Of a DNA stretch of 64,000 nt, positions 4,695 to 7,929 are shown piece after piece (position 1 is the stretch's first letter; each line of letters begins with the position of its first letter). Under the pieces are notes generated by a model that was not told where the DNA came from, did not search any database, and saw only the letters and a list, made by a program, of their open reading frames with translations. Made by a program: the position numbers and the translations under genes. Source of the DNA: Curvularia clavata. Lineage: Eukaryota. The DNA lies in NCBI GenBank assembly GCA_023920165.1, contig CP089279.1, positions 930,001 through 994,000 on the forward strand, given 5' to 3'.

Positions 4695-4994
4695 TTTCCC
4701 AGGCTATTCAATTTTTATCACTTGCTGCTCTTCCTGTCGAGGGCGCTGCGGGTGCGCGTAATGTGCTTGGTTGTGTCGGGTGCCTTTTGTTTATGCGACA
4801 TGAAGAACAGCGGAAGACGATCCACGCTAGCCAGGAACAACGCCGCGGCAAAGCCACACTTGTGCACGCACCAGGTGAGGCGCACCACCTCTGATCTTCA
4901 CCGGCCACTGACCTTTCCCGATCTATCCACATACAGTAGATGCATGCTGGTTATGCTGGTGCCTACAGGTGACGCGGCGCATACAAAAGGTCCA

Positions 4995-6170
4995 ATGGAC
5001 CTCACGCCCATTATTGTCCGCGGCAAGAAACGCAAATATCTACCCCCAGCAATTATTCAAGCCTCTTCCACATCTACTACCTCTCAACCGAAACGAACCT
5101 GGAAACCGAAAGCAAAAAGCAAACCCAGGATGGCCATGCCCGCAATGCCGACACTCGACGGCCTTCCAGTCGAGCTGCTGGAAATTATTTTCTTGCATAG
5201 CATGAATATGGCACTTCCACGGTGCTCCCATTCCTTGGGCAAAAAACTGTCCTCACGCACCATTACCATGGAATTTACAATGCGGTCTTTTTTTCACACA
5301 GTCGATCACCGCACTGTACATCGAGACCGCGAGGTGACCAGTGATGCGGCTCTGCAGTCGGATATCCTATCCTGTCGCTTCTTTACCTACGATTTTTTCT
5401 TAGCCTACGTCCGGCGTGCGCACGAGGCCATGATCCAATTACGCGGAAAGGCATGGGCATCCACTGGTGTTGTAATTCCTGATGTATCGTACTTTGATGG
5501 ACTGTGGCCATTTAAGTTTACCAAGATACCGTATCTAGGATTTGCACACGGCTTTGCTATTCCAGAGAAGCTTCTGCATGGGCCTTGGACAGAGGGTAAG
5601 GCATCATTACTCTATGTCCTAGTGAGCCTGACCGGTGAAATTGACTGGGAAGGTAGTACGGCAGGAGAGGTAGCGAAGACAGGTATCCGAGAAGCAATGA
5701 GAGAGGGCAACGAGCGTGCGGTTGCCGCTTTAGCGGTACTCTTAGGTGTGTCAAAGGGTATCACCACTGAAATGTTACAGTATGCCGTCATGGAATGTGG
5801 CTGTAACTTGAACATTGTTCGACACCTGCTGTTCAATGCGCAGATTCTCGCAGCAGAGACATCAAACAGCCTGAACTTTTTGGATCCGGCTCTCTGGGCA
5901 TGGGCAGGTGTCAATGGCACCAAGGGAGAGATGCTCAAAGACATGCTCAAGAGAGCAGACGTGTTTGAACTGGAATTCTACTTCGAGGATGACGCTGACT
6001 GGACTAAAATTGTATCGTTTCCGTACGGAGGAAGCAAATTTGATGCGAGGACAGCGTTTCAGCCTGTTGTCAGGGAACTGTTGATGAACCTCTATCGAAA
6101 CTATGGACGGAAGATAACGCGAAGGAGAGCACCGACACCAGAGCGAAACACATGGCCGGACGTAGTTTAG
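4995..6170 (+). CDS. Hypothetical protein with an F-box-like motif
   Basis: Long single-exon ORF. LDGLPVELLEIIF...LPRCSHSL resembles an F-box. Start taken at ATG 4995; upstream ATGs are possible. Confidence 0.6.
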   Translation: MDLTPIIVRGKKRKYLPPAIIQASSTSTTSQPKRTWKPKAKSKPRMAMPAMPTLDGLPVELLEIIFLHSMNMALPRCSHSLGKKLSSRTITMEFTMRSFFHTVDHRTVHRDREVTSDAALQSDILSCRFFTYDFFLAYVRRAHEAMIQLRGKAWASTGVVIPDVSYFDGLWPFKFTKIPYLGFAHGFAIPEKLLHGPWTEGKASLLYVLVSLTGEIDWEGSTAGEVAKTGIREAMREGNERAVAALAVLLGVSKGITTEMLQYAVMECGCNLNIVRHLLFNAQILAAETSNSLNFLDPALWAWAGVNGTKGEMLKDMLKRADVFELEFYFEDDADWTKIVSFPYGGSKFDARTAFQPVVRELLMNLYRNYGRKITRRRAPTPERNTWPDVV

Positions 6171-6508
6171 TTAATGGATGGATGGATTGTTATTATACAA
6201 CTAGCTAATTCGCAGATATGCTTGAAGAATCAATGGCCGCTTTCGGCGCCTACCTTTGCGTCCTACGATCATAAAACCCGCTGAATGAAACGGCGCACCA
6301 GGTGGTGCAGATAATGTGCGACGCTCTCTACAAAAGACGCAATACAAAAGCAGCGTCTCAGCTTAGCTGGTGAACATGTCATGCTGGCCCAGATGAACCC
6401 TTGGCTATAGAGAGTACTGAAATGTGAGGCTTTGTTGTCATTGCATCTGCAAGCTTGTTAGCTATTTGTGCCAGCACAAATATGTCAAGCAAATGCGTGG
6501 TGGAAGTC

Positions 6509-6584
6509 TTCCTCAGTGATCTTGGTGATAAAGTAGTAATCACAGAAATCATCTACTATCTATTGCATGTTGTAATCATTGGAA
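6509..6584 (-). ncRNA. Box C/D snoRNA, U24/snR24-type guide for the 25S rRNA Cm (yeast Cm1437 equivalent)
   Basis: Minus strand TTCC-aATGATT...TATCACCAAGATC-a-CTGA-GGAA: terminal stem TTCC/GGAA, C box, D box and a guide complementary to 25S GAUCUUGGUGGUA. The D+5 rule points to the C. The D box lies 65 nt upstream of the 3' splice site. Confidence 0.85.
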
Positions 6585-6770
6585 AGGGGGGGTGACGAAA
6601 GCAAAGCCGTACTGACCTTGGGTGAGTGTTACTGTTGGCTTCGGAGCCACAGGGCAAATAAGCAAGCAGTGGCCTATGCGTGGGTAGGTGTCTAAAAATC
6701 TTTTCAAAGTCAGCTTTGGCCCTCTAGCGTATCGAGACGTGGAAGAAAAGTGCGTGCGTGCGTGAAGCAA

Positions 6771-6872
6771 ACTCAGAATATGTAAGAAATTGAATATCAT
6801 AAGACCGCCGCCGTTAAGAGACCCCGGCGAGGGTCTCCGACGACGGACTCAATCGCAAATTATGTCATCCTT
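6771..6872 (-). ncRNA. Box C/D snoRNA, snR87/U16-type (18S Am436 equivalent) with a second 25S guide
   Basis: Minus strand gATGACA-TAATTTGCG-a-TTGA(D')-long GC hairpin-ATGATA(C')-...TTTCTTACATATT-CTGA(D). The D' guide pairs with 18S CGCAAAUUA and the D guide pairs with 25S AAUAUGUAAGAAG. Confidence 0.8.
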
Positions 6873-7330
6873 GGATGGGGAAGAGGGTTGTGGAGGATGG
6901 AGACGTACCAGTGGAGCGAGCTATAGAGCCAGTTGCAGCTGCAGTTAGTTTGCTGATGCATGTCCGTTGTCAGGAGAGAGCGCGCAGTCTGGTCCATCAT
7001 AGATGCATTGCTCAGGATGCGCAGTATAGACGCAACAAGTGCATTGCACTAGATTGCAGCTGGTCTGTTGTGTTGTTGTTGTTATTGTTGGCGCAGAGTC
7101 CAGTGATGAGGAAACAAGTCGCGGTCGCGGTTGCGTTTTTCTGCTTGTGCCAAGCCGGGCTTCGCTTGTGCACGGCCCCGGCGCCGCACTTGGATTTTCG
7201 ATTGTGTCGAACATTGCCTTTACTCCCGACAAGAACATCACCAACGACCTAATTTCCGACCAGTACGCCTTTCGACGCTGCACCACACACGCTTCATCAG
7301 TTAACATTCATTCGCAGCACAACCGACGAA

Positions 7331-7929
7331 ATGGGTGACGCCGAAATCACAACGAGCGCCTGGAGGCTGGTCGAGGTCGGCCGTGTGGTCCTCTTCAACG
7401 AGGGCCAGTACGAGGGTCGCCTGGCTGCCATTGTCGAGATCATTGACCACAAGCGTGTACGGAATCCCGGTGTTTCGGTTGCTGTTCAGCCGCTCACACA
7501 AGCATAGGTTCTCGTCGATGGTCCTTCCGAGAAGGCCCCCGTCCCCCGCCAGGAGGTCGCCCTTGCCAAACTCTCCCTCACACCCATCGTCATTCCCAAG
7601 CTTCCCCGCGCCAGCGGTGTCGGTCACGTTGCGAAGAAGTGGGAGGAGAACAAGGTCCAGCAAAAGTTCGACGAGAGCGCATGGGCAAAGAAGCGTGCGG
7701 CCATGCAGAAGAGGCGGGGACTCAACGACTTTGAGCGCTTCAAGGTCATGAAGATGAGGAAGCAGGTATGTTGTGTCCGGCGCCGTCCTGTTCACGAGCC
7801 ATGATTTGACTCTTGAATTTTGTCGCGTGCCGTCAATATTGTCTGGGAACGTCATAGCTAACGAGCACGCAGGCCCGCTTTGAGGTCCAGAAGACCTTCG
7901 CCAAGATCCGCGCCAGCGCAAAGGCATAG
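7331..7929 (+). CDS. RPL14: 60S ribosomal protein L14 (eL14); exons 7331-7456, 7508-7765, 7873-7929
   Basis: [48 protein letters not shown]...[22 protein letters not shown]; strong codon bias. Confidence 0.96.

Follow-up and report, generated by a model that had tools for sequence, protein, structure and literature searches.

Results

A spliced non-coding gene beside RPL14

The window examined here is a 64,000-nt stretch of the Curvularia clavata genome (GenBank assembly GCA_023920165.1, contig CP089279.1, positions 930,001 to 994,000 of the forward strand), and all coordinates below refer to it. The gap next to the ribosomal protein gene RPL14 (eL14; 7235..7929, plus strand) holds an expressed, spliced, non-coding gene on the minus strand that hosts two box C/D small nucleolar RNAs (snoRNAs). 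This host gene extends from 7096 to 6182, both ends being approximate, and consists of exon 1 (6909..7096; 188 nt in the contigs), intron 1 (6700..6908; 209 nt), exon 2 (6617..6699; 83 nt), intron 2 (6447..6616; 170 nt) and exon 3 (6182..6446; about 265 nt). Intron 1 contains snoRNA 1 (6771..6875, minus strand), a box C/D RNA assigned by covariance model to the Rfam family Afu_514. Intron 2 contains snoRNA 2 (6509..6584, minus strand), a 76-nt box C/D RNA with a U24-type D guide, recognized by a permissive Rfam scan and by conservation. About 138 bp (7097..7234), presumed to be a bidirectional promoter, separate the host contigs from those of RPL14. An initial annotation made from the letters of the window had proposed a minus-strand host divergent from RPL14, and spliced contigs in four of four RNA runs bear this out.

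The RNA evidence consists of assembled contigs from four public runs of four studies (X1, X2, X7 and X13); altogether the window stretch is present in public runs in 24 rows from 13 studies. One of the four runs is recorded as a metatranscriptome, and the other three, whose type was guessed, are taken as RNA because RPL14 has both of its coding introns removed in them. Contig ends are a weak proxy for true transcript ends and start sites and cannot show tails. Contig depth was rejected as a measure of co-expression, since depths cannot rank genes by expression.

Contigs of all four runs carry the joints 6699^6909 and 6446^6617. The stretches that they skip read CT..AC on the plus strand, which is GT..AG on the minus strand. 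Intron 1 has GTACGT as its 5' splice site, a CTGAC branch motif at 6714..6710 and a 3' splice site (AG, 6701..6700) that is the first AG beyond this motif; the corresponding signals of intron 2 are GTCAGT, CTAAC at 6461..6457 and AG at 6448..6447. The two introns of the initial annotation are real, with their 3' borders displaced: 6908-6692 becomes 6908..6700, and 6616-6448 becomes 6616..6447. The splicing that it predicted is seen in the RNA at 6909^6699 and 6617^6446, not at the exact joints 6909^6691 and 6617^6447. The middle exon, given as 75 nt, measures 83 nt because the 3' splice AG of intron 1 lies 8 nt upstream of the AG chosen earlier.

One contig, record 10 of run X2, joins 7096..6909, 6699..6617 and 6446..6182 into 536 nt. 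The 5' contig end at 7096 is common to X2 and X13; the 3' contig ends fall at 6172-6182 in three runs, with one further end at 6236, and exon 3 comes to within a few bases of the stop codon (6170) of a convergent open reading frame (ORF), 4761..6170. Eight AUG-initiated ORFs of 2-37 aa are found in the 536-nt spliced RNA, among them one of 30 aa and, as the longest, one of 37 aa; the first AUG opens a 10-aa ORF. Tiny ORFs only had been expected of the spliced exons, and this holds. A further contig, from X1 (6464..6646; 183 nt, depth 3.5), is unspliced across the boundary of exon 2 and intron 2 and continues into and past snoRNA 2; either precursor RNA or traces of DNA may account for it.

snoRNA 1, a member of the Afu_514 family

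The whole 64-kb window was scanned with Rfam at gathering thresholds, and 6000..7400 was scanned permissively in addition. The single match at gathering thresholds in the whole window is Afu_514 (RF01515) on snoRNA 1, at 64.4 bits against a gathering score of 39 (E = 2.1e-9 for the 64-kb window) and over model positions 1-106 of 106. The claim of one box C/D snoRNA per intron stands, the Infernal/Rfam comparison yielding Afu_514 above its gathering score and, for the second intron, a SNORD24-like candidate at 37.4 bits (below 41).

The C box of snoRNA 1 reads GGAUGA (6870..6865); this variant of UGAUGA is common to 5 of 20 groups of relatives (defined below), and the others have UGAUG. Behind it come the invariant UAAUUUGCG (6862..6854), then AUUGA, a C' box at about 6799..6794, the D guide AUUUCUUACAUAUU (6790..6777) and the D box CUGA (6776..6773), which is invariant in all 21 sequences and ends 73 nt from the 3' splice site.

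RNAalifold on the snoRNA 1 alignment gave only 6 pairs, connecting an invariant GCGA to the loop UCGC, with one double change (in the relative L029) and little covariation. Because these pairs were so sparse, we tested an internal 16-bp hairpin between D' and C' that was derived by eye from the window sequence, a derivation that somewhat favours this structure. In this hairpin 82.4% of the cells are paired, compared with 39-54% when the partners are slid; both sides have changed in 13 of the 16 pairs, and none of 500 shuffles reaches any observed measure (21 sequences).

Right behind the C box lies the block UAAUUUGCGAUUGA (6862..6849, minus strand; columns 15-28 of alignment A1), which is invariant in 20 of the 21 sequences and has one change in L029. 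It occupies the place of a D' guide, is shared by a weak match to SNORD16 and supplies the GCGA of the RNAalifold pairs, whose double change in L029 is compensating. The SNORD16 match (19.8 bits, E = 1.4) is not significant; the UAAUUUGCG block and an internal hairpin are common to the two RNAs. No target for UAAUUUGCGAUUGA is given in the available text of either the Aspergillus fumigatus paper (PMC2377427) or the Neurospora crassa paper (PMC2780460).

The N. crassa RNA CD10 is 104 nt long, maps to linkage group I and is listed as 'Intron'; like Afu-514 it was cloned, the method in Table 1 being given as 'C, N' (Liu et al. 2009, PMC2780460). Comparison with its sequence in Additional file 1 reveals that snoRNA 1 has in common with it UAAUUUGCGAUUGA by the C box, UUCGCCGG at the centre, and the D guide. 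Judged by these shared blocks, snoRNA 1 is the homologue of CD10. Its D guide contains UUCUUACAUAUU followed by CUGA, the same guide that Additional file 4 of that paper pairs, as a prediction, with 12 nt of 26S rRNA (Um1039); the central GGGACCCUUUCGCC is predicted there to act as a D' guide on 26S rRNA (Am3264).

In A. fumigatus, Afu-514 is a 105-nt C/D RNA with 74 clones, tabulated as an orphan without target (Jöchl et al. 2008, PMC2377427, Table 1) and listed as 'Intergenic; Afu6g03830/Afu6g03840'. In tables of two unrelated papers AFUA_6G03830 is named 'Ribosomal protein L14'; together with the listing in PMC2377427, this means that Afu-514 also adjoins an L14 gene. We infer that this L14 is eL14, and the eL14 homologue present in three Aspergillus-like groups of relatives backs the assignment.

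snoRNA 2 and its U24-type guide

SNORD24 (RF00069) matches snoRNA 2 with E = 2.3e-4 in the 1.4-kb search, in an alignment that rests on the boxes, the terminal stem and a guide ending in ACCAAGAUC before CUGA. The terminal stem pairs UUCC (6584..6581) with GGAA (6512..6509). It encloses a C box AUGAUUA (6579..6573), the conserved UAGAUAGUA (6562..6554), the D guide AUCACCAAGAUC (6529..6518) and a D box CUGA (6516..6513) that ends 66 nt from the 3' splice site. The initial annotation had placed the two D boxes 65-81 nt from their 3' splice sites; the measured 73 and 66 nt lie inside this range, and the values 81 and 65 themselves did not survive. In the Rfam alignment, AUCACCAAGAUCA then CUGA is set against the conserved ACCACCAAGAUC of the model. 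The D' block of the SNORD24 consensus, AUAUUUGCUA, is absent from the snoRNA 2 alignment, and UAGAUAGUA is conserved there instead.

The second snoRNA of the relatives scores 35.4-39.6 bits against SNORD24. Rfam returned SNORD24-like matches in only 4 of 19 relative loci, although the guide is present in more, and snoRNA 2 was therefore counted by motif searches. The C box, D box and guide of snoRNA 2 are retained in relatives. The 4-bp terminal stem is found in 13 of 16 sequences; with the flank examined, it has 3 bp in L078 and 2 bp in L055 and L075. Compensating variants of the stem are UUCC/GGAA, UCCC/GGGA, GUCC/GGAC and GUUU/AAAC. RNAalifold on the snoRNA 2 alignment found no pairs.

In N. 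crassa a guide with the ACCAAGAUC core belongs to CD50, which is paired, as a prediction, with 26S rRNA at Cm1418 (Additional file 4, PMC2780460), maps to linkage group I and is listed as 'IR' (intergenic). If the target is set by the fifth nucleotide upstream of box D, as the rule has it, then with the pairing printed in that paper AUCACCAAGAUCA-CUGA would target the cytidine that CD50 selects.

The UAGAUAGUA block precedes a UGA-type D' box in snoRNA 2 and is kept in most relatives, being absent in L080 and L078. It is kept even in the L002 group (L002:1012-1091), where the U24-type D guide is gone from the second snoRNA. The block may be a second guide.

Conservation in metagenome relatives

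Relatives of the locus were sought in metagenome contigs by scanning with the 18-nt D guide plus D box of snoRNA 1, which gave 97 loci; invariance of the D guide among the relatives is accordingly built in by the search pattern. Thirty-three loci have the other conserved block of snoRNA 1, one (L096) is too short to judge, and the remaining 63, in which that block is absent, were discarded as chance 18-mer matches. The 33 loci form 20 groups of identical snoRNA 1 sequence, or 21 sequences with the window. Nineteen of these 33 candidates were submitted to Rfam, and all 19 pass the Afu_514 gathering score at 51-105 bits. Linkage to RPL14 was testable where a contig has at least 500 nt upstream, and the presence of snoRNA 2 where it has at least 300 nt downstream.

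Synteny, proposed as a check in the initial annotation, is largely present. An RPL14 homologue lies upstream on the opposite strand in 21 of the 23 loci that were testable; by group the count is 14 of 15, the miss being L036/L040. Its start codon is 287-488 nt from the 5' end of snoRNA 1 in the relatives, and 1361 nt in L078. The Aspergillus-like groups L029, L055/L074 and L075 (Rfam 94-105 bits) have the eL14 homologue at this position. At 154-428 nt past snoRNA 1, 16 of 18 testable groups have a second C/D snoRNA with the guide [CU][AU]CCAAGAUC; of the two misses, the L002 group keeps the AGAUAGUA block with another D guide and L036/L040 has none. L078 is stretched on both sides, its second snoRNA lying 428 nt downstream, and the C box of this second snoRNA is the canonical UGAUGA instead of UGAUUA. 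The Afu_514 homologue of L036 (L036:1013-1120, minus strand) is found 3' of an ORF of 426 aa that has the same orientation, and it retains flanking GTATGT and CTAAC signals.

Segment by segment, the window was compared with five relatives (L025, L042, L048, L006 and L080). Identity is 80-95% for RPL14 exon 1, 77-90% for snoRNA 1 and 65-95% for snoRNA 2, compared with 14-47%, 28-45% and 6-38%, with long gaps, for host exons 1, 2 and 3. Conserved intronic boxes within fast-evolving exons had been predicted, and this is the pattern observed.

Processing of intronic C/D snoRNAs depends on their position within the intron. Upstream of snoRNA 1, GTNNGT is found at 30-47 nt in 15 of 18 testable representatives, two of the three misses (L085 and L082) showing GTATGC; downstream, a CTRAY branch motif and AG follow at 45-69 nt in all 19 representatives. 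For snoRNA 2, the 120 nt upstream contain GTNNGT in 12 of 13 representatives (at 34-42 nt in ten, at 60 and 87 nt in two), and CTRAY with AG lies 48-61 nt downstream in 13 of 13. Such near-constant placement agrees with this position dependence. It has also been reported for the intronic snoRNAs of N. crassa (PMC2780460).

The region shared with RPL14

Contig ends at 7096 for the host and at 7235 (X2) or 7242 (X7) for RPL14 place the two transcripts head-to-head and about 138 bp apart, as far as this weak proxy allows. Between them lie CGCGACCGCGAC (7122..7111 in the minus reading; a GTCGCG repeat on the plus strand) and GATGAG (7100..7105, plus strand). Over this gap, identity with the two closest relatives is 62-67%, and with the remaining ones it is 32-43%.

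Both motifs, which the initial annotation had taken for elements co-regulating the pair, are present in the window (the repeat at 7111..7122) and fare differently among 15 representatives. CGCGAC(T) occurs near the host start, 187-268 nt before snoRNA 1, in 8 of the 15 (window included, one reversed) and is absent from all three Aspergillus-like representatives. The PAC-like GATGAG was rejected as a shared element: it is found there in one representative, the window itself, and relatives read TCTCACCA or TCACCA at its place. The best-conserved block, GCGTACCGGTCGGAAAT, belongs to the 5' leader of RPL14. Co-regulation of the host and RPL14 through a shared promoter is plausible, the case for it coming from geometry and conserved adjacency.

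RPL14 and the genes around it

The neighbour was correctly recognized as RPL14: its exon 2, the part searched, matches Pfam PF01929 (Ribosomal_L14e) at 98 bits. The gene has its ATG at 7331, introns at 7457..7507 and 7762..7868 (joints in all four runs) and a stop codon ending at 7929, and the mRNA continues past 7950. The 5' leader likely has an optional intron at 7263..7317 (plus strand; GTACGC ... TTAAC ... CAG). An X13 contig starting at 7318 carries 15 loose letters that equal 7248..7262, and the X2 and X7 contigs retain 7263..7317; in relatives, no other part of the leader is as well conserved as the splice and branch signals of this stretch. In X1, one contig skips from 7393 to 7726 with TT..AA ends, and several loose ends fall within RPL14. 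These oddities look like chimeric contigs or another organism's RPL14 in the run.

Beyond RPL14 follows a gene with a NAC domain (8429.., plus strand; 36.5 bits in Pfam on its first exon). It stands beside RPL14 in 10 groups of relatives, the Aspergillus-like L029, L055 and L075 included. The gene that flanks the host on its far side, ORF 4761..6170 (plus strand), had been labelled F-box-like; this label has to be dropped, as the ORF has no Pfam match at E <= 0.01. The ORF is conserved (40-73% identity) in window-like relatives only, and no homologue was found within 1380-3000 nt downstream in L029, L055, L075 and L078.

Discussion

The locus is very probably a non-coding host gene divergent from RPL14, whose introns are the source of two snoRNAs and whose exons are their carrier. 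RNA polymerase II would transcribe a short minus-strand gene (about 7096..6182) that stands head-to-head with RPL14, and the transcript would be spliced to an RNA of about 536 nt. The useful products would be the two introns, in each of which about 30 nt separate the 5' splice site from the snoRNA and about 50-60 nt separate the snoRNA from the branch point. Once spliced out and debranched, each intron would be trimmed by exonucleases to the snoRNA-protein particle, in the way established for intronic snoRNAs. With its D guide, snoRNA 1 would then direct modification at the equivalent of 26S Um1039, and snoRNA 2 with its own at the equivalent of 26S Cm1418 (N. crassa numbering). The spliced exons would be a disposable carrier, as in UHG, GAS5 and the cluster hosts of N. 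crassa, and the presumed common promoter region of about 140 bp probably links guide output to ribosomal protein expression.

Several points weigh against this account. The transcript ends rest on contig ends, which are weak evidence. Mature snoRNAs are unseen in the contigs: snoRNA 2 is covered only by the one low-depth unspliced contig, and in all four runs there is no contig over 6720..6905, which includes snoRNA 1. The missing snoRNA 1 contigs weigh neither way, because the libraries are probably poly(A)-selected and such contigs cannot show a mature snoRNA. snoRNA 2 falls below the SNORD24 gathering score. The guide-target pairings are those of the N. crassa paper, where they are predictions by its authors made with N. 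crassa 26S rRNA (PMC2780460), and the A. fumigatus paper, in its available text, found no target for Afu-514 (PMC2377427). As to the link with RPL14, L036/L040 has snoRNA 1 without RPL14 within 2913 nt upstream or snoRNA 2 within 1016 nt downstream. CGCGAC reaches just over half of the representatives and GATGAG the window only. The linkage may also be plain microsynteny, because the NAC-domain gene is syntenic as well.

This last point is the core of the alternative that survives best, which is that adjacency to RPL14 is neutral microsynteny, the two genes having separate core promoters and the host being tuned independently. We regard it as a serious possibility, a little short of an even chance. 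The syntenic block exceeds the pair itself, no motif is common to all lineages, snoRNA 1 lies away from RPL14 in the L036/L040 lineage, and L078 has 1361 nt between snoRNA 1 and the start of RPL14, versus about 290-490 nt elsewhere. Set against this, the pairing persists in 14 of 15 testable groups, from Aspergillus-like to window-like by Rfam score, and the paired groups span 36-95% identity in the first high-scoring segment pair of a tblastn search with RPL14 (intron-bearing DNA, for which low values are unreliable). ORF 4761..6170, which flanks the host on the side away from RPL14, was not found in L029, L055, L075 and L078, so the neighbourhood broke beyond the host and not between the host and RPL14. 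The spacing of host and RPL14 is tight, and in 8 of 13 Ascomycota species the same promoter motif is co-enriched upstream of genes for C/D snoRNAs and for ribosomal proteins (PMC4138321).

A second alternative, that the snoRNAs come from units of their own or from unspliced read-through and that the surrounding splicing is incidental, is very unlikely. Nine C/D snoRNAs of N. crassa are independently transcribed and its U24-type CD50 is listed as intergenic (PMC2780460), and one X1 contig retains intron 2; yet the spliced form is present in all four runs, splice signals keep a near-constant distance from both snoRNAs in nearly all relatives, and the N. crassa homologue CD10 is listed as intronic (PMC2780460). 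That the spliced RNA is itself functional, as a micropeptide of 30 or 37 aa or as a regulatory long non-coding RNA, is equally improbable: such ORFs are present and the RNA is abundant enough for assembly in four runs, but exon identity, at 6-47% and with long gaps, contrasts with the 65-95% of the snoRNAs, and the first AUG leads to the 10-aa ORF.

A non-coding host with intronic snoRNAs has a precedent. Of the 55 C/D snoRNAs of N. crassa, 45 lie in introns of hosts that are either coding or non-coding (Liu et al. 2009, PMC2780460), which upholds the precedent that the initial annotation had cited. Spliced non-coding hosts of the UHG type are known there and across fungi (PMC2780460, PMC3596301). 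As in the N. crassa hosts, each intron of the present gene carries one C/D snoRNA, splice signals are canonical and the ORFs are short (PMC2780460). At the level of the RNAs, snoRNA 1 resembles CD10 in its UAAUUUGCGAUUGA block, CGCC loop and D guide, and snoRNA 2 resembles CD50 in its ACCAAGAUC guide (PMC2780460). The guide of CD50, however, stands before the D' box of an intergenic RNA with a (UGUA)n insert (PMC2780460), whereas snoRNA 2, a compact intronic RNA of 76 nt, has it before the D box. The host and neighbours of CD10 are not named in the text or supplements of PMC2780460, as distinct from its figures. The A. fumigatus Afu-514 belongs to the same family as snoRNA 1 and likewise lies in a gap beside an L14 gene; as published it is intergenic with no host (PMC2377427), unlike snoRNA 1, which is intronic in a spliced host.

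The mammalian hosts UHG and GAS5 also have poorly conserved exons, little coding potential and one C/D snoRNA per intron (PMC2780460, PMC3596301). The present host differs from them in having two introns only and in standing head-to-head with a ribosomal protein gene. UHG and GAS5 have a 5' terminal oligopyrimidine (5'TOP) start and are sensitive to nonsense-mediated decay. Vertebrate U16 and U24 reside in introns of ribosomal protein genes. Here too guide production would be tied to a ribosomal protein gene, and snoRNA 2 matches SNORD24, if below threshold; the tie, however, would be adjacency and not residence in an intron, and homology of snoRNA 1 with U16 is not established.

Transcription of snoRNA and ribosomal protein genes is coupled in Ascomycota via shared motifs (PMC4138321, 2014). 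That coupling acts in trans, loci that lie apart having a motif in common (in fission yeasts Homol-D, in Candida Tbf1 sites), and here it would be physical, through one shared intergenic region. The study included N. crassa and A. fumigatus, and the section available does not state which 8 of the 13 species show co-enrichment. A paper on Phytophthora ribosomal protein promoters mentions snoRNAs of the intronic kind only.

Building on the host gene itself, we tentatively suggest that the RPL14/host pair is an old, selected module of filamentous ascomycetes, reaching from Aspergillus-like to window-like groups, in which the guides are driven from the RPL14 promoter region; our confidence in this stays somewhat below even. 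If true, the module would be a fungal counterpart of the U16-like and U24 guides inside vertebrate ribosomal protein gene introns. Within this suggestion Afu_514 would act as a double guide, with UAAUUUGCG as a U16/snR87-type guide for 18S rRNA, and UAGAUAGUA of snoRNA 2 would serve as a second guide for the large-subunit rRNA. A literature search on the equivalence of the snR87 and SNORD16 sites found nothing. Neither the head-to-head pairing with RPL14 nor the intronic nature of Afu_514 was found in print, in a search that covers text outside subscription journals and figures.

The snoRNA families and this kind of host gene are already known, and what is known of snoRNA biogenesis is unchanged by the finding; the conserved link to RPL14 is a modest addition. 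An apparently empty intergenic gap proves to be filled by a real, expressed gene, and the snoRNA on record for A. fumigatus as an intergenic orphan is here encoded in an intron of a spliced non-coding host. The order of NAC-domain gene, RPL14 and host provides a synteny anchor for annotating both snoRNAs in other Pezizomycotina, and the link to RPL14 might offer a compact, testable case for the coupling of rRNA modification guides to ribosomal protein output.

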